The notes below the pieces were generated by a model. It did no database searches and was not told where the DNA came from. It saw only the letters and a program-made list of their open reading frames with translations. A stretch of DNA of 64,000 nucleotides from Escherichia coli (GTDB taxonomy: Bacteria > Pseudomonadota > Gammaproteobacteria > Enterobacterales > Enterobacteriaceae), in NCBI GenBank assembly GCA_902500205.1, contig GCA_902500205.1_4868.1; one strand, written 5' to 3'. Made by a program: the position numbers and the translations under genes. Below, piece after piece: positions 5,255 through 60,910 of the stretch (within the stretch, counting starts at the first letter, position 1; every line of letters begins with the position of its first letter).

Positions 5255-5307
5255 TTTTTTACATGACGTTGGTTTCATGTGTTGGGGAACAAAATAAGGA
5301 CAAGAAG

Positions 5308-23560: not shown

Positions 23561-24467
23561 GGTACCCTGTGTATTTTTTACGTGGTTTCCCTATCGTGTG
23601 TTCAGACCACCACTCGATGTCCAAAAACCCATAGCTTCGGTGGTCGCCTCCCTGGTCGGTAGACTCTGACAAGTCGACCCACACCACCAACCCGTCCGGG
23701 GACGGATTTTTATTCCAACGACAAGCTCCACGAAAATCCCCGCAGAGGGACTCACTGCTGTGTGACTCACCGGCTCCTGGACGCCTACGCCTCGAGCCGG
23801 TAATTTTTTGATTACGTGAGTTTGTTGTTATATGCGAATAGCGATTGACCGCGCCAATGGTCCAATCACTTTTTAAACCCTGCACGCTAGGGCTCCAAGT
23901 CCTGGGATTGATACCCAGGACGCTTTTTCGAAAATACCTGCCGTGGTGTCTTCGACAAAGCGCAATCTAACACTGCGTGATTTATTATGTTCTGGAAAAC
24001 TTTCGCCGTGGAACAGAACCGGTGAGCGTCGGCGGGGATTCCGACAATCACCACCCATTCAGGTACTCGGTAGATAACCGACCTGCCGACGGTGCTACGT
24101 CGGGCGTAGTTCGGTTTGCGAGAGTGTCGAGAAAGTCGACTGCGCACCCATGACAAAATCCGAGTTGACCGTGGCAGCGCCAGAGGACTGGGCAGCGGAG
24201 AGACGTCGTTGAACTTACCTCCGATAGTTATCGCTGATTCCGCTCTGGCGTCGGGCCAAAACTGATTCGAATTCGGCGTTGCGTCGAAAAGGGGTCTGCG
24301 TGTAGAACCGCAGACTTGGGGGATAACTCCAAAGTGGGGTGATCGGATCTTGACGGCTCGGAATAGACGAGAGGGGTGGGTACTCCCGTTGAGAAACGAC
24401 GGTACCTGGCTGATTAAAATTTACAGATTCTGCGTGAGGTATGATAAACCAAACGGAGAATTAAACC

Positions 24468-25043
24468 ATGAACTTGTATCGCGTCGGGTTTTACCGAAAC
24501 GAGATGCCTGAATCGGTTTTGGTTGTCTTAGCCGAAAACGAGGAGCAGGCCAAATCCTTCTGGCCGGTTAGCGCAGAGCGTCCAGCGGTTGCGTGCTGCT
24601 ACGACGGCGCTGTGTCTACCCCGATGGTTACGCCTGGGGTGGTTCTGAAGCAAGGCCGATGGGAAGATTACTCCCATCCCGGTTTGGAGTTTGTTTCCGA
24701 ACCTGCCAGACATTCCTGGGAATTTCCCTCAGGCAACACCGAGACGTATTTCGGATTTCAGGTTAAACAACCTTCGACGCTCAAACTGTACCTGGTGTAC
24801 AGCGACGCCGCTACCGAAGACTACGTCGATTCCGGAATCATCGTCGGGGCAACAACCCCTGCTGCGGCATTCGCACATTGGGACGGTGATAAACCCGGAA
24901 TCGTTTCGGTCTGTGAGCTACCACTTGAAGCCGGTTTGGTTACGAACATCAAGTGTGAGCAAGGCCAGGAGCTGACTTGGATGCGCCAGGATTACCTGAC
25001 GGAAACGACATTCGAATACACACCGAGGAGGGTGACCCAATGA
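24468..25043 (+). CDS. hypothetical protein, translationally coupled to the HslV-like peptidase; N-terminus paralogous to gene 25766
   Basis: ATGA overlap with the next gene; shares MNLY...VV.A..EEQA N-terminal pattern with 25766..26008. Confidence 0.55.
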   Translation: MNLYRVGFYRNEMPESVLVVLAENEEQAKSFWPVSAERPAVACCYDGAVSTPMVTPGVVLKQGRWEDYSHPGLEFVSEPARHSWEFPSGNTETYFGFQVKQPSTLKLYLVYSDAATEDYVDSGIIVGATTPAAAFAHWDGDKPGIVSVCELPLEAGLVTNIKCEQGQELTWMRQDYLTETTFEYTPRRVTQ

Positions 25044-25531
25044 CGACGATAGCGTTCGACGGAAAAGTCTTAGCTGCTGACGGTCAGCTGACCCGCGGGT
25101 CGAATATCTGCAACCTGAACACCCAGAAGTTATTCATCTGCCCTTCTGACGAGGAATGGTGGATTACTGGTGAACGGATTGTGGCGTTCGGAGTAAGCGG
25201 TGACATCACAGGACAGTTGGCCCTGCTGGAAACGGTCCGCTTGAGACCCGGCTACAAGGGATTAACACAAAGCTCGCAGTTACCTACGAAGATGGATTTT
25301 ACTTTCCTGATGCTTTTGGCCTCAGGAAAAGCGATAGTCGGCGGAAAACGTGAAGACGACGTGACGTTGTGGTGGAGTGAAGCCACACCACCTCTGGCAA
25401 CCGGAAGCGGTTACGAGTATGCGTTGGGTGCGATGAAGATGGGCGCGAATGCGGTTCGTGCTGTTGAGATTGCGTCCGAATGCGATATCTACACCGGTGG
25501 TGAGATTAGCACTTACGAATTACGGAGGTGA
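25040..25531 (+). CDS. HslV-like Ntn-hydrolase peptidase (proteasome beta-type fold)
   Basis: Begins MTTIAFDGKVLAADGQ (Thr1 nucleophile exposed after Met removal, as in HslV MTTIVSV..GDGQ); GSGYEYALGAM and CDIYTGGEI match HslV GSGG..A.AA and ICIYTNH regions; GAGGAGG upstream. Confidence 0.75.
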   Translation: MTTIAFDGKVLAADGQLTRGSNICNLNTQKLFICPSDEEWWITGERIVAFGVSGDITGQLALLETVRLRPGYKGLTQSSQLPTKMDFTFLMLLASGKAIVGGKREDDVTLWWSEATPPLATGSGYEYALGAMKMGANAVRAVEIASECDIYTGGEISTYELRR

Positions 25532-25623
25532 ATCATGCGGGAGTCAGAAGCACGCAAGCTTGACCCCATCAATCGCCTGCGATAACGGGGTAGCGCATCC
25601 GTATAAACACGTTCAAGAATTCT

Positions 25624-25699
25624 AGGAAAGTGACGCAATTGGTAGCGTACCGGTCTCCAAAACCGGCTGTTTAGAGTTCGAGTCTCTACTTTCCTGCCA
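25624..25699 (+). tRNA. tRNA-Trp (anticodon CCA), 3' CCA encoded
   Basis: Manual cloverleaf: acceptor AGGAAAG/CTTTCCT, D-stem ACGC/GCGT with GG in loop, anticodon stem CCGGT/ACCGG with loop CTCCAAA, T-arm TAGAG-TTCGAGT-CTCTA. Confidence 0.85.
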
Positions 25700-25765
25700 C
25701 ATTTAGCCAACAAGGCCATGATTCAAAGCAGAATGACACCGAATGTCTAACTGCGGAGAATAATC

Positions 25766-26008
25766 ATGAACTTGTATTTGCTAGAACGAACTGACGATAT
25801 CGGGTATGATGAATTTGATTCCATAATCGTGGCGGCTCCTACGGAGCAAGCCGCGTGTGCAATTCCTCCCGACCGTGGTCATTGGATGGACTGCCGCTGG
25901 TTACCGAAAGAGCGCTGGGATGAAGGGCTTACCCTGACCGTTACCCTTATCGGCACTACGCACTATCCTGCTGGGACCGTCGTTCATGAATCGTTCAATG
26001 CTGGCTAA
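25766..26008 (+). CDS. hypothetical small protein, N-terminal paralog of gene 24468
   Basis: Same leader and MNLY start as 24468; followed by a UUCG-loop hairpin at about 26012..26030. Confidence 0.5.
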   Translation: MNLYLLERTDDIGYDEFDSIIVAAPTEQAACAIPPDRGHWMDCRWLPKERWDEGLTLTVTLIGTTHYPAGTVVHESFNAG

Positions 26009-27047
26009 ACAGTGGGCTTCGGCCCACTAACCCTATTCGAGCCATGATACTTACTCAGATTGTGCGGGTTGATGTCCCGCATGAGCCGGTAGCAGCTCAG
26101 ACCTACGGTAAACCGATAAATCCGTAGCAGCCAGGTACACAAAGCACCAGGTCGCTTGTACAGGATGCTGGGTATCTGACCGGTCATAACCTCATTCGAT
26201 ACGAGACACGTTTATGCATGAAATATTCCAGTACATCAGGATGTTGATTTCAAACGTCCGGTTCTGGGTATTCAATCATGTTTGGTTTACAGGCGATGGG
26301 TTTTCCCGCAAGGGCCCCACTTACAGACTGGCGTCTCCACGACAACCGTCCCTAGGGGACAGGCAAGCACCGGCCCATTAAGCCGCCATGCTACGCCTGT
26401 AAATCCACAATCTGATAACCGAATGGGATTGAGTTCCCAGTGTTAGGGTGACTGTGTGTCACCGTAGGCGCGGTACCTCATACGGCCGGTACGCCACGAA
26501 TGTACGTGATAGCAGGTGGTGCTTGGAGACGCTAAGACCTGACCTTACGGCCAGGCTCAGAAGAAGAAGTTCATCACCCGCATTCAGAAATGAATTTAGG
26601 TTAATTATTGGAAGTGGTGAAATCGTTTACGTGATAACTTAGTAGTATGCAACGAACAATACCAGAGTGACTTTACGAGGTTACTGTGGTATATGTCGGT
26701 GCGCCGGGCAACGTGTTGCCGCAGATAAGCCCGAGGGAGCTGAATGCACTAACACACGCCGGGATGCACCGGCACCTTACAATGGGAGCGCTGTCACCAT
26801 CAGTGATGACAGGAGTGAAGGATTCGTACCTCACTCGACTGGGCGGAAGCCTGGGCGTTCCCCCATCTTCACATCATGGCCGGCTTGCCGGTTCAACGTA
26901 GACGTCTCGTAAGAGATTTCCAGTCAGGCAACTGATAACACACCTAAGCGTCGACCTTGGACGTATGGTGTCTGGTTAAGTCCCCCGAAACGGAAACCAG
27001 TAGGGGTGTGGTACGTTGAGTGTAACTATCATGATGCCATGAACAAT

Positions 27048-27117
27048 GGCTTTGTAGCTCAGGTAGGTAGAGCAGCCTCTTCGAGGAAGGTCGCCGGTTC
27101 GAGACCGGTCAAAGCAA
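27048..27117 (+). pseudogene. tRNA-like element with truncated anticodon arm (degenerate tRNA?)
   Basis: Good acceptor (6 of 7 bp), D-arm GCTC-AGGTAGGTA-GAGC and T-arm GCCGG-TTCGAGA-CCGGT, but the anticodon arm is only CCTC-TTC-GAGG. Confidence 0.3.
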
Positions 27118-27119
27118 GA

Positions 27120-27189
27120 GCAGTGAAGTTAGAGGAATTAACACCCGACTCATAATCGGATATTTCGCGGGTTCGAATCCCTGCCACTT
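27120..27189 (+). pseudogene. tRNA-like element with CAU anticodon loop (degenerate tRNA-Met/Ile-like?)
   Basis: D-arm GTTA-GAGGAAT-TAAC and anticodon arm CCGA-CTCATAA-TCGG are fine, T-loop GGGTTCGAATCCC present, but T-stem and acceptor pair poorly. Confidence 0.3.
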
Positions 27190-27572
27190 GCTCGCCCCAT
27201 TTGTGTTATCCTTATCCCGAAGGCATTCGAAATAAGACGCGTATCCACACACGGGTCAAGGGTAACACGAACCACTTCCGCGGTCACCGTGTCCATTGCC
27301 GCCTACCTGCATGGGCTGTCCTCCGACACGGTGACTTCGGGCCAACTTACAGGCCAGGGCTGTTTGGGTTTTTCTTACGCATCCATCCAGAGCCACCTCG
27401 CGCCCTAGTCTGTATACCCCTTTTCTGTTCCTGGTTTGCCAACTAAATCAATTAAGCCTGGTGCGTTGCCCTGGGAACAGAAAAACTTATTCGGTTACAC
27501 ACCGAACCCACCCACGAGGGATATGTCGTGGACCACCAATAGAAGCAGCAATAGTAGTAAGAAGGAAGCAAC

Positions 27573-28617: not shown

Positions 28618-29568
28618 ATGTACAGACCAAGTAATCCTAGCGCTATCGAAGGATTAAACCAGGATGGCTTCAGCCTCGCAGAAGCAACCCGCATTCGACC
28701 TTTCTTACCTCGCAGATTCTTCCCTTTCGGTTCGTTATACAGAACGAACTTTGACGCCTGGGAAGCGATACGTGCTGTAAAAGATGCACTACAGTACAAG
28801 AACTTCGAATTCCGATTTGTGTTCAAATGGGGCAACGGCGAATTGCTCCACTACTTCGGATTCCAACAGAACGAGTTTATTGAGTATACCTCACCTACGT
28901 ACCACACCAGGTTCTTAAGTATCGAATTCGTTCGCCATTTCGGCGATGCACTCTTTACGGAACGTGCGGCAGATGAAAACCATGGACGTAGGCTGGTGTT
29001 AACGAACGGTGGATTACGCATCAAGATGAATCGTTTACGGGAAGCGTATAACCAGCTCATCAATCCTGAACCGGTAATGTTTCCAACAGTCGCAGATTTG
29101 AACGTTACACCACTCCAGCTACCTGTGGATATAGACAAACCGATCCTGGCAATCAGAGCACTGCAGGCAGGTTACGCAAACTGGTATAAAGGGCACAGTC
29201 TCCCGAACACCAGATTGAACATCGAACCGTATGAGTTGTGTTTATTCTTAACTCTACGCAAGCGGTTTGAGCCAGATAACTTAGACTTACGTTATCTGGC
29301 TAAAACAGATAGCGGTAGTTACTACCCAACGACCTGGATGCTAGCGGCTGTACTACCCGGCGGTGAAATTATCGGTAACCCTGTCACCGATGTTCAACAG
29401 TTACCATCACCGTTAGCACCACCGAAGGATTCAATCTATCCATACGCTTCGTGGTACGCGAGTAGTATTGGCGTGAGGTGGTTGATGTTACACGTTCCCG
29501 AAGAGGTCTATAATTTATTCCCGCATGAGCAATGGCTCCGTGCGTATGAAATTCGGTTTGGTTGGTAG
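28618..29568 (+). CDS. hypothetical protein (316 aa)
   Basis: Promoter motif upstream, terminator downstream. Confidence 0.6.
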   Translation: MYRPSNPSAIEGLNQDGFSLAEATRIRPFLPRRFFPFGSLYRTNFDAWEAIRAVKDALQYKNFEFRFVFKWGNGELLHYFGFQQNEFIEYTSPTYHTRFLSIEFVRHFGDALFTERAADENHGRRLVLTNGGLRIKMNRLREAYNQLINPEPVMFPTVADLNVTPLQLPVDIDKPILAIRALQAGYANWYKGHSLPNTRLNIEPYELCLFLTLRKRFEPDNLDLRYLAKTDSGSYYPTTWMLAAVLPGGEIIGNPVTDVQQLPSPLAPPKDSIYPYASWYASSIGVRWLMLHVPEEVYNLFPHEQWLRAYEIRFGW

Positions 29569-29579
29569 TCGATGCTTTT

Positions 29580-29613
29580 GAGGGAACTTCGGTTCCCTCT
29601 TTTTTTCTTTTTT
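29580..29613 (+). terminator. intrinsic terminator
   Basis: Hairpin GAGGGAAC-TTCG-GTTCCCTC plus T-run. Confidence 0.75.
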
Positions 29614-29637
29614 CACGACTGCCTCAGAATCTTATAG
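29610..29637 (+). promoter_or_regulatory. promoter-like motif, class 2 (TTTTCACG..CTTATAG)
   Basis: Near-identical arrangement recurs at 35611..35637, both just after a terminator and 15-25 nt before a start codon. Confidence 0.35.
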
Positions 29638-29649
29638 GAGGAAGTTACC

Positions 29650-30066
29650 ATGATTACGCAGTGCTATTACCAGACGCAAGATTTATTTAAAGCATTGGAA
29701 GAAAATAAGTTACCCACGACTTTAAGACCGCAGTGCAGTTATTCAAGAATGCTTGCAAGTGAGGTCTTTCCGGTGCTAATGCAGTTGCCTCAATTCCAAC
29801 CGTGGCTCGACTCGCTAGATGTGGTAGATGTTGTGGCTATCTACACTGGGTCAGACACACCAACAATAAATACAAGCGAGTGTTTATCCCGTAGCGAATC
29901 GTCGGTGTTAAATGAAATGCCGCAGCTAATGCCTTCTTTATTCGATTCGATGTGCGCTGCAGTTATGCAGAAACGACTACCTTATGAGGAAGTATTCGCC
30001 ATTGTGTTAGACAGCATCCACGCAATGAATTATAAACACTATAAAACCCTCGGAACTTTACACTGA
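29650..30066 (+). CDS. hypothetical protein (138 aa)
   Basis: AGGAGG upstream of ATG. Confidence 0.55.
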   Translation: MITQCYYQTQDLFKALEENKLPTTLRPQCSYSRMLASEVFPVLMQLPQFQPWLDSLDVVDVVAIYTGSDTPTINTSECLSRSESSVLNEMPQLMPSLFDSMCAAVMQKRLPYEEVFAIVLDSIHAMNYKHYKTLGTLH

Positions 30067-30133
30067 CTTTTTTACGGCAGGCACCTATCTTGTAGGGAGT
30101 CTGTGCTGTAATAGATTCCAAAGGAGATGCTCG

Positions 30134-30523
30134 ATGAAAAACAAACTGCGTCCGCTGGACGTGATTATGGCGCATCCGGATACCCTCAAGAAAATTAAAG
30201 TGGTCAACGAACTTGACCGTGGTCTCCTGGATACTATTCAATGGGGTTTTACTTTCCACCCCGATGAAGAGAACAACACGCGTCAATTAGATGTCTGCGA
30301 CGGCGTAGAAATCGATTGGTCTTCTAACGAAGGCTTTGATGATGTCGTCGATTATGTTAAACAAGCCACCGTTCCGCCTGTGTTCCCAGTAGCGGGTTTA
30401 GCGGAACACACAATTTCTCTCCGCCGACTGGTTAACGCTCAACCAGAAATCGTGCGTGAAGGTGAAGCGTGGACGTCAGGCATTACCCACCATCTTAAGG
30501 ATGTGTTGGGTGTTGCCGGTTAA
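30134..30523 (+). CDS. hypothetical protein (129 aa)
   Basis: AAGGAG upstream of ATG. Confidence 0.55.
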   Translation: MKNKLRPLDVIMAHPDTLKKIKVVNELDRGLLDTIQWGFTFHPDEENNTRQLDVCDGVEIDWSSNEGFDDVVDYVKQATVPPVFPVAGLAEHTISLRRLVNAQPEIVREGEAWTSGITHHLKDVLGVAG

Positions 30524-30575
30524 AAAAGAAGAAGTACCTCTACGCGAGTAGAGGTACGGAATCTTTCTTTTTTTT
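30521..30575. terminator. bidirectional intrinsic terminator
   Basis: Hairpin GTACCTCTAC-GCGA-GTAGAGGTAC between A-run and T-run. Confidence 0.7.
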
Positions 30576-30576
30576 G

Positions 30577-31389
30577 TTACGACTTGAAGCGTCCACCGTT
30601 CATGTAGTTCCAACGGTTTCCGATGTTGTCGTTGTGGACCAGACAACGTTGCATTTTCGGCAAGGTGTCTTCGAACATTTGACCCGCGTCCGAGTAACCT
30701 TCAATAACGTTTCTGAAGGCACCGAACTCCATACCATTTTCCAGTTTACCGGAGTCCATGTCGAAGATCATGGTGTTGTAGATATATTGCTTAACAGCCA
30801 TAACTGCCAGCTCACCTACAACCGGATAGAAGGCCGGCTTGATTTCGTTCATCTCCTGGGATAGTTCGTACTTCACCACGAGTTTGGTAGAGTAAACGAA
30901 CATGCCTGGGTCTTTGATACGGATGGTATTCGGACCGAGCACTTCAACTTCTGGTGAGGCGATACGCGGCATCGCGGATTGACTATCAACCACTTGCTGG
31001 GTGGATGCTAATACGCCAGAGGTGGCACCGTCCAGATATGAACCTGCGGGAGGCATGGTGTACGCCTGTCCGGCAACGGGTGTTACAGAGATATGGGCGT
31101 CCAGAATTGGGCGACCACCTGTTTTGATGTCGTCGAGATAATACACGCGACTGAAATAATCTTGCGTGTCGTTATCCCAAGGAACACCTTGCAAATCTAC
31201 TTCTTGATACTGCCCCATTCTGGAGATTTCAGGGACCAGAATTTCACGAATAACGCGTTGTTGAATTTCGTTATCTACAGAGCTTGCAATTCCCAGTAAC
31301 TTGAGGTTTTCTGGAACAAAAGCCGCCTGTAGAATCGGGGCAGGGATATGCTGTCTGATTTTACGCAGACAGTAGTCGATAACATTCAT
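30577..31389 (-). CDS. hypothetical protein (start moved to ATG 31389)
   Basis: AGGAG upstream of the minus-strand ATG at 31389; optimal codons. Confidence 0.6.
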   Translation of the reverse strand: MNVIDYCLRKIRQHIPAPILQAAFVPENLKLLGIASSVDNEIQQRVIREILVPEISRMGQYQEVDLQGVPWDNDTQDYFSRVYYLDDIKTGGRPILDAHISVTPVAGQAYTMPPAGSYLDGATSGVLASTQQVVDSQSAMPRIASPEVEVLGPNTIRIKDPGMFVYSTKLVVKYELSQEMNEIKPAFYPVVGELAVMAVKQYIYNTMIFDMDSGKLENGMEFGAFRNVIEGYSDAGQMFEDTLPKMQRCLVHNDNIGNRWNYMNGGRFKS

Positions 31390-31508
31390 TCTAAGGCTCC
31401 TATGAAGCTCGTAGGACAACTCATACCATCGGGTAATGCTATCCCATTACCTGACATTAAAATACGTTTTACGACCTTTATGTGCGCACCATACTCGAAG
31501 AAATTTTG

Positions 31509-31528
31509 CATAGATATTATCTTCGTGA
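31509..31528 (+). promoter_or_regulatory. phage promoter-like motif, class 1 (CATAGATATTATCTTCGTGA)
   Basis: Conserved motif copy upstream of the 31553..35571 gene array. Confidence 0.5.
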
Positions 31529-31552
31529 ATTATCCTTAAGGAGCATTTCTCG

Positions 31553-31873
31553 ATGACGCGCATGTTCTTTAATTTCTCTCCAGGGACAAATGAACAGATT
31601 GTGCCTGCGGACATGTTACTGTGCGCGATACAAGAAGTTATTTATCCCGGCACGCATGAGTTTCCACGTGAGTGGACACGCATTGCCGAAAGTTATTTTG
31701 GCACGGAAGCGTGGTTTGTTATTTCGGCGTTGGGCCGAAACCATCGCTATCCCTTTCATTACAAAAATGGAGTTGTGCAAACGTGGTCAGAATATACCTC
31801 GAACCAGCTGCGGTTCATTCTAGCTTCTGGGGGCCTGTCGATGCTTCCCAGTACGCTACCGCTCTGCGGATGA
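31553..31873 (+). CDS. hypothetical protein (106 aa), first gene of a tightly coupled array
   Basis: Conserved leader TAAGGAGCATTTCTCGATG. Confidence 0.55.
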   Translation: MTRMFFNFSPGTNEQIVPADMLLCAIQEVIYPGTHEFPREWTRIAESYFGTEAWFVISALGRNHRYPFHYKNGVVQTWSEYTSNQLRFILASGGLSMLPSTLPLCG

Positions 31874-32433
31874 GCCAAAAAGAACGCGAGATGTTAACTG
31901 TACAACTGTTACACACTGCGCTCGAAGATATCTTTTACTCCGTTCCGGAAATGCCTAATGCACGTATGGAACCTTTGCTGGAACCTTATACTGACGCTTT
32001 TAATCTCACGATGATGTTGGTGGCTGACCAGATCATACTCCCACCGAAAACAGTTCCTGTGGAACGTACATATGTTTCCAGTGGCGGTTTGGGTGCCCCG
32101 GTTAATAAGACGAAAGAGACCGTAGCGATTTTACGTTCTACCGAATATCTTATCGGATTGGCATTCGAAGACTGTTACAACAGTTTCCTGGACAGTATCC
32201 ATGCACTTGTGGAGAATGCTGTGAAGGCCACCAACCAGCCGTTTAATCGTTATGCGACGATTAAACTGGAACCACACATAACCCATCGTGGGCAGGTGCA
32301 ATCTCTGGAGTTGCAAATTGGAGAAGACATCAGATTCATCCACTACCGCCAGTGCTTCCCAAACAAACGATATCGTCCGTCTGGTACTGATCGATCACAT
32401 CGCCTCGACGGCATACGTCAGGATATTGAATGA
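31870..32433 (+). CDS. hypothetical protein (start moved to ATG 31870, overlapping the upstream stop)
   Basis: ATGA overlap; the track's earlier start would overlap the upstream gene for 200 nt. Confidence 0.5.
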   Translation: MSQKEREMLTVQLLHTALEDIFYSVPEMPNARMEPLLEPYTDAFNLTMMLVADQIILPPKTVPVERTYVSSGGLGAPVNKTKETVAILRSTEYLIGLAFEDCYNSFLDSIHALVENAVKATNQPFNRYATIKLEPHITHRGQVQSLELQIGEDIRFIHYRQCFPNKRYRPSGTDRSHRLDGIRQDIE

Positions 32434-32755
32434 CCCCAGCGACATCATGTTCAGCATGTATGATGTTAATACGGGGTTGAAGCATATCATTCTCTGTATG
32501 CTCGAATACATGATTCCGACATTTACAGAACACGGTACGTGGGACGTAGAAACAGTCTCACTGATTGTTAGGTGCTATCGTCCCAGAAGTCATTCGCGGG
32601 AAATCCACACCATCGCGTCTCACGTTCATCGTGCTATCTGTGAGGAAATGGGCATTCCTCCGAAAGGGTATCGGTATCATTATAATCAAGCAGACAGAAT
32701 TCTCCGTTTCATTCCACGTAAGGTAACAGATGTCTATGATGACGGTTTATACTGA
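32426..32755 (+). CDS. hypothetical protein (start uncertain: TTG 32426 or ATG 32447)
   Basis: Frame of track ORF 32288..32755 trimmed to avoid the upstream gene. Confidence 0.35.
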   Translation: MNDPSDIMFSMYDVNTGLKHIILCMLEYMIPTFTEHGTWDVETVSLIVRCYRPRSHSREIHTIASHVHRAICEEMGIPPKGYRYHYNQADRILRFIPRKVTDVYDDGLY

Positions 32756-33137
32756 GTTCGTGCGATTGACTTGCCGACTCACCGCACTCGTCAAAGAGAA
32801 TCTCGGCATCGATTACCAGGATGCTGCGGTAGAGCTTGACGACTATATCGAGCAAATTGTTCGGTTGCATGTTCTGCGGAAAAAATATGGCGTTATCGAT
32901 AGCATGATACGCCAGTTCTTTATGGAGTATGTTCACGATAACCCAATCATTACTCCAACCACGTCGGCAAAATACTGGGCTCTTTGTCGATTTGAGTTGT
33001 TGATACGGGACACCGATTGCATCTGGCAAGCAATCGACGAGGACATGACTTATTTACCACAATCCGACTTCCTCCTTTGGCATGTAGGAGATGGTGTCTG
33101 GAAAATGTTAACTACAGGGGTTACTTACAATGATTGA
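32730..33137 (+). CDS. hypothetical protein (135 aa)
   Basis: AAGG upstream of ATG. Confidence 0.5.
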   Translation: MSMMTVYTEFVRLTCRLTALVKENLGIDYQDAAVELDDYIEQIVRLHVLRKKYGVIDSMIRQFFMEYVHDNPIITPTTSAKYWALCRFELLIRDTDCIWQAIDEDMTYLPQSDFLLWHVGDGVWKMLTTGVTYND

Positions 33138-33639
33138 GCGATCTCATTTTTATATCCCCGGCTATCAGTTATTGGCTGGGCCGTTAACGGAGTTTTCGCC
33201 AAACGATGTGCTCCGCGAAGTGAATGACGATTTGAACTCGATAATCAATACCGCCATGAGCTTCGTGGAACGTGGAACCATTGGTAGTGAGTTAAAGTTT
33301 ATGATGAACAATACCTTTGGGTTTGTTTCTCGTACACTGAATGCGCACGGCGTTGTGTTGGAAAATGAGCAAGTAATCACTTACGGCACCGCAATTCAAA
33401 ACATCGGTCGTGCGTATATGACCGCCGTATCGCAGTCTCCTTATTGGTTTACTCACTACGGTCGTTGGGTCGGTGCACAATACACAACGCGCAATCCGGC
33501 GGATGTCGAATTCTTATTAGACTATAACGGTGGTGATAAATTCCCACAGTTTGCCAGCCAGGAAGCGTACGAGCGAATCACCCCACAACTTCTGCCTGTT
33601 ATCGATTTGCTTATCGGTAATCTCGGAGGTCGTGTATGA
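33130..33639 (+). CDS. hypothetical protein (169 aa)
   Basis: Overlapping start/stop with neighbours. Confidence 0.55.
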   Translation: MIERSHFYIPGYQLLAGPLTEFSPNDVLREVNDDLNSIINTAMSFVERGTIGSELKFMMNNTFGFVSRTLNAHGVVLENEQVITYGTAIQNIGRAYMTAVSQSPYWFTHYGRWVGAQYTTRNPADVEFLLDYNGGDKFPQFASQEAYERITPQLLPVIDLLIGNLGGRV

Positions 33640-34124
33640 GCGTTCTGTTTGATGTGGCGGATATTGCGAACCAATATAGCGCGACTCGGTTTTACGAGCA
33701 TGTTCGTGAAGCGGCATTGCGTGTACTGGAAGCCAGTAACCTGGAGATTGATGAAACACAGATACGTGATTTTTATCAACGTTTTGCGTTTGCGTATATC
33801 ATCGGTGTGAAAACTCGTGACCCTTCGACGATGGTTGATTTGTTACAGGAAGACACGCTTGAACCTCTGGGCAATTGGGAGTTGGTGTCCGATGGTCTGT
33901 CCGTTGACCAGTTCGCTAAGGAAACGTCTGTCGATACGACGTTTCTGGCAGCACAAGGTTCGCCCGAACAACATCAAGCCGCCTTCGGCGCTGCGGTAAG
34001 TTTGCTGGCCGAAGAGTTAACAAACTTAACTGGTTTTGCTGGGCTGATAGAGTCGCTGTATCCGGGGCGATATCAAACGTATGTGGGTGATAGTTTTAAC
34101 GATGTGGTGTTAATCTGCGAATGA
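33636..34124 (+). CDS. hypothetical protein (162 aa)
   Basis: GGAGG upstream; ATGA overlap. Confidence 0.55.
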   Translation: MSVLFDVADIANQYSATRFYEHVREAALRVLEASNLEIDETQIRDFYQRFAFAYIIGVKTRDPSTMVDLLQEDTLEPLGNWELVSDGLSVDQFAKETSVDTTFLAAQGSPEQHQAAFGAAVSLLAEELTNLTGFAGLIESLYPGRYQTYVGDSFNDVVLICE

Positions 34125-34552
34125 AACTGTACATGACCATAGGCGAAGTCTTCAAATATGAGTCGTTGTTGGCACGGGCCGAGATTGCTGATACTAGCGA
34201 GATCGAGCCCGCTGTCGCTTATTTGTTTCTGGCCAGTTACGCCGAATTAACGGTACGTTCTATTGTTAATGGGCTAGGTAAGGGTAAGAACTTTCTTACT
34301 TTTATTCCCCCAGACCCTGCGTTGATACTGGAACAGTTGCGCGGGATGTGGGGTACTGAAAAGGTGCTGCCTCTAAACTGCTACAGCATGAGCAGTGGGA
34401 TTAAGGATGATGTTCGGTTCTATGAAATCCTTTCCGTGATAGAACGTGTGTGGGGCATGGCTGGCTTGACTCCAGAAGACGGAGCAAAAAAGACAAAGGT
34501 TTCACTCCTTATGAATGAAATTGGCAACGCACTCATCTGTGTTGAATGTTAA
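34121..34552 (+). CDS. hypothetical protein (143 aa)
   Basis: ATGA overlap with upstream gene. Confidence 0.55.
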   Translation: MKLYMTIGEVFKYESLLARAEIADTSEIEPAVAYLFLASYAELTVRSIVNGLGKGKNFLTFIPPDPALILEQLRGMWGTEKVLPLNCYSMSSGIKDDVRFYEILSVIERVWGMAGLTPEDGAKKTKVSLLMNEIGNALICVEC

Positions 34553-34561
34553 GGAGTACGA

Positions 34562-35161
34562 ATGATCTACAAGGTGATCGCCAACCACTTGATTAATGTG
34601 GACTTGGGGGTCGTGGGGTATCTTCCGGACGGTATGCGGTTTTTGGATTTGGTGGTTGACACCGTAGTCCGCCTACCGCGTATCACCGTGGAGATACCCG
34701 TAAAAGAATTGGACCAGGACGAGATACACGAACTTATACGTGAAACGCTGACTAGCTATACGTACGAGTTTCGTTGCATGTTGCCTCGCACCGACCTTAC
34801 GTTCTTGCACGACTTCTTTACGTTACTGACTGACGAGTACCGTCGGTGGAAGTTTAATGTTGCAATGGAAGCCAGCACTGAGTCACATTTTAACGGGCTG
34901 ACACCATTGTTAGATTTAGCGTTGGTGTACAAAGAGCAAGACAGTTCACACTGGGCCACGCTCAAGCACTACACGTTGGATCTAATGGCGACCGCCGTAA
35001 CGGAGGCAGTTATGGCGCATTATGTTGAGCCGGTGAAGATGTTCTTAGAGGCGCATAATGGCGCTATCCGTACGTTGGTTCTCAAGGTGGACTTCCCGAA
35101 AACACCAGTGACCAATGCTTTGGATATGAGGCTGCTTATTGATGTTCCTGAGGAGGAATAA
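34562..35161 (+). CDS. hypothetical protein (199 aa)
   Basis: AAGGAG upstream of ATG. Confidence 0.55.
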   Translation: MIYKVIANHLINVDLGVVGYLPDGMRFLDLVVDTVVRLPRITVEIPVKELDQDEIHELIRETLTSYTYEFRCMLPRTDLTFLHDFFTLLTDEYRRWKFNVAMEASTESHFNGLTPLLDLALVYKEQDSSHWATLKHYTLDLMATAVTEAVMAHYVEPVKMFLEAHNGAIRTLVLKVDFPKTPVTNALDMRLLIDVPEEE

Positions 35162-35571
35162 TGTTCGATTTACGCACACTGGTCGCTGGGCAAAAAGTTA
35201 ACATTGTTTACGACACCCCTTTGAAAGGGCAAGAGACGCGTGTAATTATTCTGGCAACCGGCGTTGGCTATGAAATGGCCAAAAGCTATATGGATGTGAT
35301 GGCGGAGCAGAAGAATATCTACTCATCCATCGTCTCTCAGCCAGAAGATAACGTGAACAAATACACGTATCTGATTTTCAAAGGTGTTGACGGCAAACCA
35401 AAAGTCGCTGCCGATGCCTGGATTCGTGATGTTCAGATTATCGAAAACACGAAGGTGCGCTTCACCGTCACCCTGGATAACAAACAGGAGATTGACGACC
35501 TTAAACGCGCCCTGGCTGCCAATGGTTTCAATGATGTCGATTTTGAAATCGTTGAGAGCATTGCCGGTTAA
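35161..35571 (+). CDS. hypothetical protein (136 aa), last gene of the array
   Basis: AGGAGG upstream; terminator downstream. Confidence 0.55.
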   Translation: MFDLRTLVAGQKVNIVYDTPLKGQETRVIILATGVGYEMAKSYMDVMAEQKNIYSSIVSQPEDNVNKYTYLIFKGVDGKPKVAADAWIRDVQIIENTKVRFTVTLDNKQEIDDLKRALAANGFNDVDFEIVESIAG

Positions 35572-35577
35572 AGTAAT

Positions 35578-35615
35578 CCCACTCTTCGGAGTGGGTTATT
35601 TTTTTTTCTTTTTTC
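35578..35615 (+). terminator. intrinsic terminator
   Basis: Hairpin CCCACTC-TTCG-GAGTGGG plus long T-run. Confidence 0.75.
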
Positions 35616-35637
35616 ACGTATCCCGCAAGTCTTATAG
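35611..35637 (+). promoter_or_regulatory. promoter-like motif, class 2 (TTTTCACG..CTTATAG)
   Basis: Second copy of the motif seen at 29610..29637. Confidence 0.35.
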
Positions 35638-35662
35638 CTGAGTAAAAACCAAGGGGCCAGAC

Positions 35663-37942
35663 GTGGACTACAATTCACCATTTCGTCTTAGTCAAGACGA
35701 GTATCATCGCGACATTGACGTTATCGATGCGTACTACGAACAACTGGCGCTCTACATTCATACCGTCACCAACGGGAAATATTCTTTGGAGTTCTGTCGA
35801 CAGCAGGTCGAAGAAATGTTCCAACCTGGTGGTGAGTTAGTACACGAATTCCCCGTGTGTAAGATGTGGGTGCGCAATCAAAAGACCGGCGATCGCGAAG
35901 AAAAATACACCACGGTAGATAAACTGTTCCGTACAGTGATTGATAAGCAGATCATTTCTGCACCGTCGTTGACTTTCTATTTGCCGGAACACGTAAAGCG
36001 TTCTAAGCTTGCCGAATTTACCGCAGAGAACGTGCGTAAGCGTGCGGTGGTTAAGAAAGAGATGTATGCGGCCGGTGCTGCAGGCAACGAAGTTTTACGT
36101 ATTAACAAAAAGAACGAACAGAACGCTGTTAAAACGCTGAACAACGGGATGTCTGGTGCATTCTCATCACCGTACACGGTAATCTTTAACCAGTCTTCGC
36201 ACTCTGTATTGACGTCAACCTGCCGTACGGCTACATCGTTCGGTAACGCGGGCAACGAACGTCTACTGGGCGGTAATCGTCACTACGACACGCCGTCCCG
36301 TGTTATCGACCACTTACTGTCTATTGGTACACTGACTAACTTTGCGGAGTTCAAGAAGTGTATGGAACTCTATAACCTCCACTACCCAACAGTGGACGAG
36401 GTTATGGAAGTGGTTATGTACTCTGCAGAGTTTTACTTCCGTAACGACGAAGGGCTGGAGTTCATTCGTCACTACGTCGGTAATTGTAGCCCGCTGGTAC
36501 GTGCAGCGTTTGTCTACATGGGTGACTTCTACCACCTGGCGAAATACAACGATGAATTCATGCGCGGATTTATCGGTGCGCTGATTGCCGAGGAGATGGA
36601 AGACGAGATCACCGATTGGGATGCTGCTGAGCGCTCTATCGACGGTGACATGCAGATCATTATCTCGCAGTTCCGTACTGATATCGTGCCGTTAGGTAAG
36701 TCGTTCTCTGACGTTAAACTCAAAGACGAAAACACGAACAAAGCGGAACCGTGGGATAAGCAGGAAAAATACAAAGAGCTGATTCGCTCAGCTGTGTATC
36801 TGCAGAAAACCATCGGTAAGTACGCGTGCTTGATTCGTAATATCCTGACCACCAAAAACCTGCCAATCAACATTGCCAGGATGCCTGATGTGGTTCGTCG
36901 TGTTGGCGTGGTGTCTGATACCGACTCCACGATGATGACTGCACAGTGGTGGGCGCAGTGGTATACCGGTCAACATTACGGTCGTGAAGCTACGCGCGTA
37001 TCGGATGCGATGATTTATATCGCAACCCAGCACTTACGTCATCTGATGGCGAGTATGTCGGCGAATATCGGTGTGGCGAAAGAGCGTCTGTTTTTGTACG
37101 CAATGAAGAACGAATTTAAGTTCGACTCCTTTGCGTTAACCACGAAAGCAAAACACTATTTCTCCATCATCACTGGCCAGGAAGGGCAGTTGAAGTCTGA
37201 CCCTGAGTTAGAAGTTAAGGGCGTGTCTTTACGTACGTCGAACATTCCTCCGGTGGTCATGAAAGAGTTCAAACGCACGATCAAAGAACTCTGTGAGATC
37301 GTGGCACGTGGTGACAAGATTAAGATTCTGCCTCTGCTGGAAAAGGTTGCTGCAATTGAGCACGTTGTGGTGGACTCTATTCGTGCTGGTAAAGCAGGCT
37401 ACCTGAAAACAACCAACGTCAAAGACCGTAGTGCGTACTCTGAAGATGATGAAAAGAGTTACCACTACCACCGCATGTACAACGCTATCTTTGGACCGAA
37501 GTACGGCTACCTGGACGAACCGCCTTATGACGCCGTGAAGCTTCCGGTAAACCTGGAGAACAAAACAGCCGTTAAAGAGTGGCTGGAAAACATTAAAGAC
37601 CCGATGATTAAGACCACCGCAACACGGTGGTTCGAAGAAAACAACTATCGTACCTATCGTACTCTGATACTGCCAGAGTTCCTGGTGGAAAACTTCGGTA
37701 TTCCGCCGGAGCTGATTGATGCTGCAGACACACGTCGAAGCGCATTCTCCACAGTAGAACCTTACTATCACATTCTGGAATGTCTGGGTGTGTTCATGAT
37801 GGACAAGAATAGAACTCGTCTGCTTTCGGATTACTACGGTGAGTCTGTAGATTCCGTCAAGGAAGAATTAGGTAGTGGTGAGTACGTTAAGAAATCTGAA
37901 CGTGATGGAGAGGAAGAAGATGGGGAAGAAGCGGAGGAGTAA
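35663..37942 (+). CDS. large protein with family-B DNA polymerase-like motifs (putative polymerase catalytic subunit); GTG start
   Basis: KTLNNGMSGAF resembles PolB motif B (K...NS.YG) and VGVVSDTDS resembles motif C (YGDTDS); no exonuclease motifs seen and motif spacing is atypical. Confidence 0.35.
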   Translation: MDYNSPFRLSQDEYHRDIDVIDAYYEQLALYIHTVTNGKYSLEFCRQQVEEMFQPGGELVHEFPVCKMWVRNQKTGDREEKYTTVDKLFRTVIDKQIISAPSLTFYLPEHVKRSKLAEFTAENVRKRAVVKKEMYAAGAAGNEVLRINKKNEQNAVKTLNNGMSGAFSSPYTVIFNQSSHSVLTSTCRTATSFGNAGNERLLGGNRHYDTPSRVIDHLLSIGTLTNFAEFKKCMELYNLHYPTVDEVMEVVMYSAEFYFRNDEGLEFIRHYVGNCSPLVRAAFVYMGDFYHLAKYNDEFMRGFIGALIAEEMEDEITDWDAAERSIDGDMQIIISQFRTDIVPLGKSFSDVKLKDENTNKAEPWDKQEKYKELIRSAVYLQKTIGKYACLIRNILTTKNLPINIARMPDVVRRVGVVSDTDSTMMTAQWWAQWYTGQHYGREATRVSDAMIYIATQHLRHLMASMSANIGVAKERLFLYAMKNEFKFDSFALTTKAKHYFSIITGQEGQLKSDPELEVKGVSLRTSNIPPVVMKEFKRTIKELCEIVARGDKIKILPLLEKVAAIEHVVVDSIRAGKAGYLKTTNVKDRSAYSEDDEKSYHYHRMYNAIFGPKYGYLDEPPYDAVKLPVNLENKTAVKEWLENIKDPMIKTTATRWFEENNYRTYRTLILPEFLVENFGIPPELIDAADTRRSAFSTVEPYYHILECLGVFMMDKNRTRLLSDYYGESVDSVKEELGSGEYVKKSERDGEEEDGEEAEE

Positions 37943-38615: not shown

Positions 38616-39683
38616 TTATTTTTCTTCTAGCTCTGTCATCAACGGGATAATCAAATCGCGTTGGATGAAGTTATAGAAGGATTTGGTCAAACGTGTGAGG
38701 ACTTTAGAGTCCACATAACGCGCCAAATCAACCAACATCGTACGTTTGTGTTTCTCCATATTCCCCTGGTTGTATTGAAGACAAAACAGTGCCCAGTACC
38801 AGTTCACCATGTTCTGGTGCCAGGTGTTCTGCAGTGTTTGACCTGGTTCTCGAAAGACAATCAGTTCCAGTGCAGTGTGGCCTTCTTCATCAGGGTGTTG
38901 GAAGAACAATGGGATGTTGTTTAAGACTTGTCCCGGTAACGGGTTGGCAGCCAGTAGTTTACTACGGATGCCTTTTGCGTGCTTCACAGCTAAAGCTTGA
39001 AGCGGCGGAACAGGAATGACACGTAATGTTTCATCCGGTTCAATCTCTTTCCCGAAGGCTATCGCACGATGTATATTTACAAAGGCGATATCCATGTAGC
39101 TCGGCAACATGCGAGAGATCACATGTCGTTGGAGATACACAGGTGTGGCAATAGGTTCGGTACCGCGACTGTAGTGCTGCTGGCCTTTGACATATTGCCA
39201 AAGCAAAGCAACCAGGTTGATTTCGATCACCGTAACACCTCGGGGCCGTCCGTCACCGAACTTCCAATTGAGGTTGGTATACTCATGGTAGAGGTAACGG
39301 GCGGGGGTGTAGTCGCGGAACGAAAGGTCTGGATTTACTGGGCGGGCTACGAGAGAGATTACCTCATCTTGGCCCTGGATAAACTTGCTATTAAAGATTT
39401 GACCGTACTCACCAACAGACGTCAAGCGTAAGGCGTTACCGATCTGAACAAGCTTGCGACGGCAAGCCCATTCGATGTCTTCGTACTCTGGTTCACCGGC
39501 ATAGCCGATGGCAGACAACACCTGTTGCAACAAATGGCCATTACCAGCACTGCGATTAAGCTGTTCGAAGTAGTTGCGTATACGCTGGCTGTTGTTTTTT
39601 ACGTGAGCCGCTAATGTTATAGCGGAGGGGTCCGTGCTGTGACCCTTTATGGCCACTTGGTTTAACTCGGCTTGGCTGAACAT
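38616..39683 (-). CDS. hypothetical protein (start moved to ATG 39683)
   Basis: AAGGAG upstream of the minus-strand ATG. Confidence 0.6.
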   Translation of the reverse strand: MFSQAELNQVAIKGHSTDPSAITLAAHVKNNSQRIRNYFEQLNRSAGNGHLLQQVLSAIGYAGEPEYEDIEWACRRKLVQIGNALRLTSVGEYGQIFNSKFIQGQDEVISLVARPVNPDLSFRDYTPARYLYHEYTNLNWKFGDGRPRGVTVIEINLVALLWQYVKGQQHYSRGTEPIATPVYLQRHVISRMLPSYMDIAFVNIHRAIAFGKEIEPDETLRVIPVPPLQALAVKHAKGIRSKLLAANPLPGQVLNNIPLFFQHPDEEGHTALELIVFREPGQTLQNTWHQNMVNWYWALFCLQYNQGNMEKHKRTMLVDLARYVDSKVLTRLTKSFYNFIQRDLIIPLMTELEEK

Positions 39684-39735
39684 GGCAGACTCCTTAGATT
39701 CCACATAGGAAGTCAGTCACAGTCAAAAATATCTC

Positions 39736-39756
39736 AGATTGATATTATCTATGTGA
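39736..39756 (+). promoter_or_regulatory. phage promoter-like motif, class 1 (AGATTGATATTATCTATGTGA)
   Basis: First of two tandem motif copies upstream of gene 39890. Confidence 0.5.
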
Positions 39757-39831
39757 CAGTTCCTGAGAAATGTCTGGACTATGTGCCTTGTAAGTAAGCG
39801 ACGGCGTACTTGCATTCCATGGAATTACAGG

Positions 39832-39849
39832 CAGATATTATCTCTGCGA
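39832..39849 (+). promoter_or_regulatory. phage promoter-like motif, class 1 (CAGATATTATCTCTGCGA)
   Basis: Second tandem copy, about 40 nt upstream of ATG 39890. Confidence 0.45.
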
Positions 39850-39889: not shown

Positions 39890-41743
39890 ATGGTAAAAAT
39901 CGTTGACTCTAACAACAACGCTCAGCAGAACAACACTCAGACTCAAGACACCGCACCACTGGGCGGTCTGGGCAACGAGACTGTAAAAGTGCAAACTGCT
40001 GTGCCGGGTACTTCTACTGTCAGCCAATTCGATAACGCATTTGGCATCCGCAACATCAGCACCTATGCAATGCACTTCGTCAACCTCCTGGACGAGCTGA
40101 AGAAAAGCAACGAATACCTCAACGCGTTCCGCTGGGGCACCATCGCCGGCGTGGGTAACGAAATGGGTTCCGCGGCGTATGTCGCAGGCCAGTGGCAGGG
40201 CCACTGGCTGTATGGTATCATCTTCTTTGAACGCGGTCAGTCTCTGCGTCTGAAAGAAACTACCAACAACGGCCAGGAAGACTACTACACCATCACTGAA
40301 CTGTTCAACAAAGACGTGCTGGCAGTAGTACAGAAAAACATCATGGAAGCGCATGGTCTGACCAATGCGAACTTCATGATCATCAACTCCGTACCAGACC
40401 TGGGTAAAGTTCTGGATGCTGAGTGGGCACGTACTCTGATGGGTCAGATGATGATGGGCATCTTCGGTCGTATCGCAGGCTACCTGGGTACGCTGAACCT
40501 GCGTAAGCATGACCGTTATCAGGCTGCAGTAATGCCGCTGGAAGATGGTGCGGTTGTGGATGCTAACGGCCACGCACAGCGTGCTGATTTCGCAATCACC
40601 GTTGAACACAGCCCAAGCAACGTAACCGACGCCACTCCGACTCTGCTGGACACCAATCAGGTACAGGTGTATCCGCGTGTATCCGGTACTGGTTTCGTCA
40701 ATATGCGTTTCACCGGTCAGAAGCCTGTCGTTAACGGCGTCTACGACCTGAAACAGCTGCAGGCTGAAATCGTAGTAAGTCTGATCGATTCTCAAACTGA
40801 AGGTGCAATGGCACCGTATGAACGTCAACTGCTGCTGCTGGCTGCATTTGCAGAAATCGCGGCAATCGGTGGCTGGCGTGACCTGTTTGTGAAACGTCTG
40901 AACAAACAAGATCGCAAGTTCTCCCGTGTGGCAGAATACCTGTCCTGGGGCGCTGACGCTCGTCCTGACGTATCCAAAATCGACGGTAGCCGTGAAGCTA
41001 TCGAAGGTTGCCTGGATATGTTCGCACCGCGTGAAGCAGCACTGGTAGTTAGCCATCGTGCCGGTAACGGCCTGGGTGGTCTGTCTACTTTGCTGTCTGA
41101 AATTGCGGTCGGTTACGACAACTCTCTGAAACAGCTGCTCGCTATTCTGAATTCCATGTCCCCGCGTGATCAGAACGGCGAAGTTGTTGCAGCGACCAGC
41201 TTCACTGCAGTATTTGCTTCTGCACTGAAAGCACAGCTGGGCGATGCCTTCAATGGTACCATCCATTGCAGCCACATCGTGAAAGCAGCCGTACCGACTG
41301 TTTCCGGTGTTTACACCGGTACTGCACAGAAACGTAGCTTCCAGGATATGGACCTGATTTCCGTTGTTACCAAACTGGGTGATAACGCGAACGACGTCTA
41401 TAGCTACCTGAACGCACAGTCCTACAGCCACCGTGAACTGAACGAGCGTCAACAGCGTATCTACATGCTGAAACTGGCCGCTTCTCTGTTCGCATCCAAA
41501 GCACCGCAAGCTACCGGTGAATCTCTGGATATGGCTATCAACCCGATCTTCGGTAAATGCCTGCTGGACTTCGTCCGTAACAACTGCACCTGGTCTATGA
41601 CTGGTGTAAATGCCTACAACACGATGGCGACCTCTCTGTTCTTCAACAACGGTGGGGAAGACTTCACGCTGTCTGGCAACGGCCTGTCTGCAAGCGGTTC
41701 CGATTTCGGTCTGGGCGTGACTCTGAGCAACTTCAAACTGTAA
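39890..41743 (+). CDS. abundant protein; candidate phage-nucleus shell protein (chimallin) or major capsid protein (617 aa)
   Basis: Strongest codon optimisation in the window; two tandem promoter motifs and conserved leader AAGGAATATTTAAAATG upstream; strong terminator downstream; size fits chimallins (about 600-630 aa). Confidence 0.45.
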   Translation: MVKIVDSNNNAQQNNTQTQDTAPLGGLGNETVKVQTAVPGTSTVSQFDNAFGIRNISTYAMHFVNLLDELKKSNEYLNAFRWGTIAGVGNEMGSAAYVAGQWQGHWLYGIIFFERGQSLRLKETTNNGQEDYYTITELFNKDVLAVVQKNIMEAHGLTNANFMIINSVPDLGKVLDAEWARTLMGQMMMGIFGRIAGYLGTLNLRKHDRYQAAVMPLEDGAVVDANGHAQRADFAITVEHSPSNVTDATPTLLDTNQVQVYPRVSGTGFVNMRFTGQKPVVNGVYDLKQLQAEIVVSLIDSQTEGAMAPYERQLLLLAAFAEIAAIGGWRDLFVKRLNKQDRKFSRVAEYLSWGADARPDVSKIDGSREAIEGCLDMFAPREAALVVSHRAGNGLGGLSTLLSEIAVGYDNSLKQLLAILNSMSPRDQNGEVVAATSFTAVFASALKAQLGDAFNGTIHCSHIVKAAVPTVSGVYTGTAQKRSFQDMDLISVVTKLGDNANDVYSYLNAQSYSHRELNERQQRIYMLKLAASLFASKAPQATGESLDMAINPIFGKCLLDFVRNNCTWSMTGVNAYNTMATSLFFNNGGEDFTLSGNGLSASGSDFGLGVTLSNFKL

Positions 41744-44380: not shown

Positions 44381-44407
44381 GGGGCTTCGGCCCCTCTTTT
44401 TTTCTTC
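44381..44407 (+). terminator. intrinsic terminator
   Basis: Hairpin GGGGC-TTCG-GCCCC plus T-run. Confidence 0.7.
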
Positions 44408-44455
44408 ACTGGGGGCTGTATGCAGCATCCTACCTTGAATTTGACAGGAGCTAAC

Positions 44456-47481: not shown

Positions 47482-47546
47482 GTTAAAATTTACGTTAGTG
47501 GGACATCATGTGTGAACCACTAGACTGCTTTTCCGAAAAGGATGAA

Positions 47547-60901: not shown

Positions 60902-60910
60902 TCACGTTTT

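Follow-up and report, generated by a model that had tools for sequence, protein, structure and literature searches.

Two-box elements behind intrinsic terminators of an SPN3US-like jumbo phage resemble phiKZ-type middle promoters

Genes and sequence elements at the two sites

The DNA analyzed here, a stretch of 64,000 nucleotides (nt) from contig GCA_902500205.1_4868.1 of an Escherichia coli assembly (the whole stretch is called the window below), belongs to an SPN3US-like Salmonella/Escherichia jumbo phage (Seoulvirus; a phiKZ-like, nucleus-forming lineage). Its identity over this region is 97.9% to vB_EcoM_EC001 and 96.2% to SPN3US. Two intergenic sites in the window carry a two-box sequence between an intrinsic terminator and the start of a gene. 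Site 1 lies between a gene for a 316-amino-acid (aa) protein (28618 to 29568) and a gene for a 138-aa protein (29650 to 30066), and site 2 lies between an operon (31553 to 35571) and the DNA polymerase gene (35663 to 37942). The features of the two sites are as follows.

29580 to 29606, plus strand: intrinsic terminator of site 1 (8-bp GC-rich hairpin GAGGGAACTTCGGTTCCCTC at 29580 to 29599, T7 at 29600 to 29606), ending the upstream 316-aa gene
29608 to 29617, plus strand: upstream box of site 1, TTTTTTCACG, with the core TCACG at 29613 to 29617, a variant of the class box WWWTTTACG (see below)
29630 to 29637, plus strand: downstream box of site 1, TCTTATAG, with TATAG at 29633 to 29637, 15 nt after TCACG
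35578 to 35607, plus strand: intrinsic terminator of site 2 (7-bp hairpin at 35578 to 35595, long T-run to 35607), ending the operon
35609 to 35618, plus strand: upstream box of site 2, TTTTTTCACG, with the core TCACG at 35614 to 35618, invariant in eight phages
35630 to 35637, plus strand: downstream box of site 2, TCTTATAG, with TATAG at 35633 to 35637, exactly 14 nt after TCACG

Both copies thus read TTTTTTCACG, a gap, and TCTTATAG, and they span positions 29608 to 29637 and 35609 to 35637. A preliminary description of this DNA had reported a near-identical element at these places, each copy following the T-run of a terminator, and rereading the sequence confirmed both copies and a hairpin with a T-run upstream of each; both hairpins also appear in a terminator scan of the window. 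The likeness is real, but the shared stretch (TTTTTTTCTTTTTTCACG) is longer than had been described. The gap between the boxes, given as about 12 nt, is 12 nt at site 1 but one base shorter, 11 nt, at site 2. Similarly, a start codon 15 to 25 nt downstream had been reported, which agrees with site 2, where the GTG of the DNA polymerase gene (35663) is 25 nt past TATAG, but not with site 1, where the ATG at 29650 follows TATAG after 12 nt and the downstream box overlaps the Shine-Dalgarno sequence GGAGG (29637 to 29641) of the 138-aa gene.

A genome-wide class of bipartite elements

The genome-wide counts given here refer to the complete 240-kb SPN3US genome, of which 6.4% is intergenic DNA. 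The motif search proposed in the preliminary description found no copy of the strict composite motif beyond these two in the whole genome, an outcome that had been named there as part of what would count against the element. There is, however, a looser class, TTAC(G/A)-N14-T(A/G)TG, with approximately 25 to 30 members. The pair is promoter-like and fits a second phage promoter class, as had been surmised from its distinctness, but it does not form a class of its own, the two copies being variants of this larger one.

The looser pattern, a T/A-rich run ending in TTACG and followed at a fixed distance by TATG or TGTG, emerged as recurrent when all 107 SPN3US upstream regions were read, and the class element can be written as WWWTTTAC(G/A)-N14-T(A/G)TG. 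In its sequence logo, W W W T T T A C G T occupies positions -26 to -17, counted with the G of the downstream T R T G as +1. T(A/G)TG is placed exactly 14 nt after TTAC(G/A) in 23 of 105 intergenic cases, and each of the other spacings from 0 to 30 nt accounts for 0 to 3 cases; for the exact motif in intergenic DNA, the N14 count of 23 stands beside 1, 0, 1, and 2 at N12, N13, N15, and N16, respectively. In 500 dinucleotide-preserving shuffles of the intergenic DNA, the motif occurred 0.38 ± 0.63 times (maximum, 3), compared with 22 observed copies, and the TRTAG variant was observed 4 times versus 0.34 expected. Two thirds of all motif copies fall within the intergenic 6.4% of the genome. In the window, TTACR-N14-TRTG was found 9 times (2.0 expected) and TTTTYACG-N14-TRTAG 3 times (0.03 expected).

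The members are oriented toward genes. A start codon on the same strand lies within 100 nt downstream of 16 of the 23 sites, and in 13 of those, it is 24 to 40 nt away. By a strict hairpin test, a terminator is found directly upstream of 4 of the 23 canonical sites and of 3 of the 4 TATAG-type sites; since only part of the sites follow a terminator, the motif is not a part of terminators. The annotated downstream genes encode DNA polymerase, thymidylate kinase, a DprA-like protein, an SMC-like protein, and an exoribonuclease, functions of replication and nucleotide metabolism rather than of the virion, and most of the remaining downstream genes encode hypothetical proteins. The motif therefore recurs throughout the genome before nonearly, largely nonstructural genes.

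Conservation in related phages

Three intergenic spacers were compared in seven relatives (Seoulvirus, Erskinevirus, and Machinavirus; 66 to 77% identical overall). Before the DNA polymerase gene, every relative keeps TTTTTTCACG and T(C/G)TTATAG unchanged, and the 11 nt between them are constant in length and unrelated in sequence (TATCCCGCAAG, TTTGCGGGAAG, TATCTGACCAG, GGAGAGACAAG, TCAGTGGGTAA, and others). The CC.CA that had been noted within the gap is coincidental, as the orthologous gaps share no sequence with it. At site 1, TATAGGAGG is invariant in eight phages of three genera. Upstream of it, Asesino and phiEaH2 have the canonical arrangement TTTTTACG-N14-TATAGGAGG, and Machinavirus has TTTTTTTACT-N15-TATAGGAGG. 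The presence of the canonical box at the orthologous site indicates that a single element can carry TCACG and TTACG interchangeably.

The class is also present in Erwinia phage Asesino, where the first 150 kb contain 13 matches at N14 and at most 6 at any other spacing, and the N14 matches sit at positions orthologous to the SPN3US sites. In nine orthologous SPN3US/Asesino pairs, both boxes match in all nine, but most spacer positions match in only two to four; a tenth pair keeps CTACG-N14-TGTG. No conserved RNA fold was detected (RNAalifold, -0.15 kcal/mol, no covariation). A spacer that is free in sequence at a fixed length across genera suggests that the element is read on DNA by a protein.

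Comparison with promoters of phiKZ and other phages

The two sequences are probably phiKZ-type middle-class promoters that an RNA polymerase encoded by the phage reads on DNA. Since 2014, promoters of this kind have been known in phiKZ, whose middle promoters, one of its three classes, carry AAanTTACc centered at about -24, some of them with a correctly placed TATG (Ceyssens 2014 as quoted in PMC4666361). Differential RNA sequencing (dRNA-seq) of phiKZ placed the middle motif TACT ~22 nt upstream from the transcription start site (TSS), after an A-rich run (Wicke 2021, PMC8244752), and the primary TSSs of middle type identified by cappable-seq number 33 in phiKZ (PMC10914365) and 13 in 201phi2-1, where one drives a tRNA (PMC11512511). 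Read directly from the sequence, the phiKZ promoter P78M is AAAATTACC-AAATGTGTTAAATA-TATG, that is, TTACC-N14-TATG, and the expected place of P33M, upstream of PHIKZ033, reads AAAAGTACT-N14-CATG. The distance from the box to the initiator in the class described here (TTACG-N14-TRTG) is that of P78M, for which +1 has been reported at the G of TATG. The putative TSS at our two sites would be at or adjoining the 3' end of the TATAG box, which at site 2 is 25 to 27 nt before the GTG.

The elements are like phiKZ middle promoters in having an A/T-rich run that ends in TTAC/TACN at approximately -26 to -18 (the two flagged sites being one substitution off), in the 14 nt from there to a YRTG box, in their location before replication and other nonvirion genes, and in the dual early and middle arrangement before the chimallin gene. 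They also occur in the same phage family, that of nucleus-forming jumbo phages with both a virion and a nonvirion multisubunit RNA polymerase; SPN3US-like phages have two sets of RNA polymerase subunit genes, and their beta/beta'-like genes are annotated. The differences concern the boxes themselves. At its fifth base, the upstream box has C or T in phiKZ but G or A here, the flagged sites have the variants TCACG and TATAG, and TATG accompanies only some phiKZ middle promoters, whereas T(A/G)TG is nearly obligatory here, which makes the class detectable from the sequence alone. In phiKZ, no clear N14 peak was obtained for the spacing between a TTAC-type box and TATG (first 50 kb, then 90 kb), which fits the report that only some of its middle promoters carry TATG. 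A likeness upstream of the phiKZ DNA polymerase gene (TTCACT-N16-TATAC) was dropped for its wrong spacing.

The downstream box also resembles the TATG initiator of phiKZ late promoters. These consist of T-3 A-2 T-1 G+1, all four bases of which are needed in vitro by the five-subunit nonvirion RNA polymerase (nvRNAP), and a middle box reduced in vitro transcription by this enzyme threefold (PMC4666361). Late promoters have no conserved upstream box, however, whereas the upstream box is conserved here; in place of TATG, moreover, TATAG is found at the flagged sites, and TGTG is also accepted in the class. Separately, structural genes of SPN3US are preceded by (A/C)(C/G)TATG with no TTAC box, for example in the divergent gaps 154958/158739, 227140/229243, and 236780/238229; an example of such a TATG-only element in the window is at 39684 to 39720 (minus strand), and ACTATG occurs in SPN3US intergenic DNA in 8 sense and 1 antisense copies. 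Judged by their sequence and placement, these TATG-only elements are candidate phiKZ-like late promoters.

Early promoters of phiKZ-like phages, which are used by the virion RNA polymerase, are likewise phage specific, often follow terminators, and face genes. They differ in having a highly conserved AT-rich block of at least ~10 nt near -10, represented here by GATAGATATTATCT or CAGATATATATTAC, and no early-type motif is present at the flagged sites. The preliminary description had already set the element apart from its class 1 motif, and we agree, as the two have no sequence in common. Both AT-rich motifs are strongly overrepresented in SPN3US, GATAGATATTATCT with ~7 to 10 copies by k-mer count and CAGATATATATTAC with 6 copies, the latter followed by a small hairpin and AATCGACTATTA; they probably correspond to class 1, the early promoters of the virion polymerase.

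The MotA-dependent middle promoters of phage T4 are read by the host RNA polymerase with sigma-70, AsiA, and MotA, and they have a box at -30 together with a normal -10 element. The parallel, a bipartite promoter whose upstream box is read by an extra factor, stands in for the usual upstream element, and sets the middle timing, is a functional analogy only and implies no homology.

Several observations weigh against identifying the two sites as middle promoters. Both depart from the consensus in both boxes (TCACG for TTACG and TATAG for TRTG), and site 1 has one additional base. When one mismatch is allowed in the nine core positions, SPN3US has no excess at spacing 14. With a position weight matrix made from the canonical sites, site 2 scores a modest 9.8 bits, and site 1 is negative owing to its extra base. 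Because there is no excess with one mismatch, class membership of the flagged sites cannot be argued from the score alone, and it is their orthology with canonical copies, together with their conservation, that points to membership. The phiKZ late initiator depends on all four bases of TATG; TATAG would thus need to be accepted as well, unless the start were displaced by one base. Furthermore, purified phiKZ nvRNAP transcribed late (TATG) promoters in vitro but not middle ones (PMC4666361), and the enzyme that reads middle promoters is not established even in phiKZ (PMC4666361, PMC10612078). Finally, we found no transcript 5'-end mapping for SPN3US-like phages in the searchable literature, so the start point is a prediction here, as is the middle timing, which we propose by analogy with phiKZ and from the kinds of downstream genes.

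Alternative explanations

Rather than a promoter, the boxes could be an operator for a DNA- or RNA-binding regulator of the phage, either a repressor site or a site of translational control that overlaps the ribosome-binding site. The TATAG box of site 1 lies directly against the Shine-Dalgarno sequence (TATAGGAGG, invariant in eight phages), and bipartite sites are typical of dimeric regulators. The boxes are asymmetric, however, forming neither direct nor inverted repeats, and their distance to ribosome-binding sites varies: the downstream box is 13 nt from the Shine-Dalgarno sequence at site 2, and the member at 39599 to 39622 is 268 nt from the next gene. The members also head transcription units, often after terminators, with no other candidate motif where a promoter is needed, and their geometry equals that of a mapped phiKZ promoter. 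We regard an operator as improbable.

RNA processing, which had been suggested as a possibility in the preliminary description, has been raised for the middle transcripts of phiKZ as well (PMC10612078). A host or phage endoribonuclease would then recognize the boxes on read-through RNA, and the "middle" 5' ends would be products of its cleavage; the box is indeed U rich, like many RNase E sites. The strong intrinsic terminators directly upstream of both sites would nevertheless starve such an enzyme of its substrate. There is no conserved RNA structure or covariation, and a pair of short boxes held rigidly 14 nt apart by a spacer of free sequence is what is typically seen where a protein reads DNA. 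In phiKZ, moreover, the 5' ends of this class were enriched as primary ends both by dRNA-seq based on terminator exonuclease (TEX) (PMC8244752) and by cappable-seq (PMC10914365). A processing site is thus disfavored, and we consider it quite unlikely.

It is very improbable that the sequences have no function of their own and represent an extended terminator U-tract with a chance likeness, or a local duplication of one intergenic spacer. The strict form does have only two copies genome-wide, 6 kb apart and both after terminators, and the T-run makes up half of the shared bases. Yet only 0.01 copies of the composite pattern are expected in the window by chance (shuffles), the boxes are invariant across three genera in intergenic DNA that is otherwise saturated with changes, and there are members with no terminator, namely, that at 30068 to 30095 and 19 of the 23 canonical sites by the strict hairpin test.

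A host sigma-70 promoter, in which TTTACG or TTCACG would serve as the -35 hexamer and TATAG would be a poor -10 hexamer, was rejected as most improbable: TTCACG matches TTGACA at four of six positions and TATAGG matches TATAAT at four of six, but the spacer between the hexamers is 13 to 15 nt and thus outside 16 to 18 nt, the critical final T of the -10 element is absent, nothing is conserved after TRTG, a scan finds no sigma-70-like match at the sites, and phiKZ-like phages transcribe independently of the host RNA polymerase (PMC10612078).

Other members of the class in the window

The following additional members were identified in the window.

5259 to 5281, plus strand: canonical TTACA-N14-TGTG, with an ATG 26 nt downstream
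23578 to 23600, plus strand: canonical member in a gene-poor stretch
23812 to 23834, plus strand: canonical member in the same gene-poor stretch
24421 to 24443, plus strand: canonical member 24 nt before an HslV-like peptidase gene (ATG at 24468)
26627 to 26695, plus strand: two canonical members (26627 to 26649 and 26673 to 26695) upstream of a weak tRNA-like gene (27048 to 27117)
30068 to 30095, plus strand: TTTTTTACG-N14-TGTAG (TTACG core from 30072), a third member neighboring the two sites, directly after the stop codon of the gene at 29650 to 30066, with no terminator
39595 to 39622, plus strand: TTTTTTACG-N14-TATAG (core, 39599 to 39622), a fourth TATAG-type member, inside the 5' end of a minus-strand gene (38616 to 39683)
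47490 to 47512, plus strand: canonical AAAATTTACG-N14-TGTG, ~38 nt before a gene start and kept at the orthologous Asesino site

The member at 30068 to 30095 is located 38 nt before a gene for a 129-aa protein (30134 to 30523). Right after its TGTAG box, the leader GGGAGTCTGTGCTGTAATAGATTCC (30096 to 30120) has a possible 7-bp hairpin (GGAGTCT/AGATTCC) that is kept across three genera; in Huxley, GGAATCT turns a G-T pair into an A-T pair. To judge from this pattern, the hairpin would fit a stem-loop that stabilizes the predicted transcript at its 5' end.

The gene-poor stretch from ~23300 to 27500 contains five perfect middle-type motifs (ending at 23600, 23834, 24443, 26649, and 26695) and a tRNA-Trp gene (25624 to 25699). 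By analogy with 201phi2-1, those motifs that have no downstream protein gene may drive tRNAs or other noncoding RNAs.

Two further sequences resemble the class. The TCACG-N14-TGTG at 60902 to 60924 precedes a gene start by 37 nt, but its overlap with a perfect hairpin (GGGTGTATA..TATACACCC) makes its membership uncertain. The sequence at 44381 to 44407, described previously as a weaker relative following a terminator, did not hold up: it consists of the terminator T-run and TTCAC, with TATG at the wrong spacing. As a candidate member, the region 44381 to 44422 (plus strand) was rejected, since TATG (44419 to 44422) comes 8 to 9 nt after TTCAC and the orthologous spacer of Asesino lacks this part; the region is the tail of a terminator.

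The chimallin locus and the neighboring RNA polymerase gene

The TATAG-type member at 39595 to 39622 faces a homolog of chimallin (ChmA; 39890 to 41743), and in Asesino, both of its boxes are kept and the spacer is changed. The homolog was confirmed through Asesino gp039, which has been experimentally localized and to which it is 65% identical; its relation to phiKZ gp54 was not confirmed by BLASTP, Pfam, or a PDB sequence search. The middle-type motif at 39599 to 39622 is followed, still before the ChmA homolog, by the early-type motifs CAGATTGATATTATCTATGTGA (39735 to 39756) and GCAGATATTATCT (39831 to 39843). The chimallin gene of phiKZ, PHIKZ054, has an early and a middle promoter (PMC8244752), and this pair is mirrored here.

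Downstream of the ChmA homolog, an RNA polymerase beta'-like gene starting at 41826 contains a group I intron (Rfam RF00028, 69.4 bits) at 43174 to 43495. Compared with SPN3US, which lacks the insertion, the window has an additional 362 nt (43187 to 43548) directly before the catalytic DFDGD codons. By synteny, the interrupted gene corresponds to that for Asesino gp040 (nvRNAP beta'1).

Implications for transcription in SPN3US-like phages

In the mechanism that we propose for these middle promoters, double-stranded DNA would be bound by a multisubunit RNA polymerase of the phage, probably the nonvirion enzyme, at an A/T-rich run ending in TT(T/C)AC(G/A) at approximately -26 to -18 and at a T(A/G)T(G or AG) box resembling an initiator, which follows after exactly 14 nt (after 15 nt at site 1). 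A putative extra factor would read the upstream box and help the nonvirion polymerase. Transcripts would begin at the final G/A of the downstream box or beside it, so that the 138-aa, 129-aa, and DNA polymerase genes would have short leaders (~12 to 27 nt). A promoter right behind an intrinsic terminator would insulate its unit from upstream (early) transcription and so give its genes a timing of their own.

More tentatively, enterobacterial nucleus-forming jumbo phages may possess a strict two-box middle promoter, in which TTAC(G/A) at approximately -22 is followed exactly 14 nt later by a late-type T(A/G)TG, a geometry that P78M and the region preceding PHIKZ033 have in common with it. It is possible, though we would not yet favor it, that nvRNAP reads this initiator as it does at late promoters and that the middle timing is set by an additional phage factor recognizing the -22 box. 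The TATAG subtype, clustered before the DNA polymerase and chimallin genes and with its TATAG kept across genera, could be a separately timed subclass.

A 2020 review stated that the middle and late promoters of these phages are not predictable from sequence, and we found no description of middle promoters in the SPN3US, Erskinevirus, and Machinavirus lineages in the searchable literature. Here, the constant distance between the upstream box and the initiator box makes such promoters predictable. Its sharp definition (TTACR-N14-TRTG) across the lineages of SPN3US, Asesino, and Machinavirus allows the class to be listed from the genome sequence alone. The predicted regulon would comprise ~25 to 30 units, including the DNA polymerase gene, nucleotide metabolism genes, and a second promoter for the chimallin gene. 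The elements also offer defined DNA probes for capturing the missing specificity factor and a concrete prediction of 5' ends, and in a genome of mostly "hypothetical" genes, they would mark the starts of transcription units for annotation.

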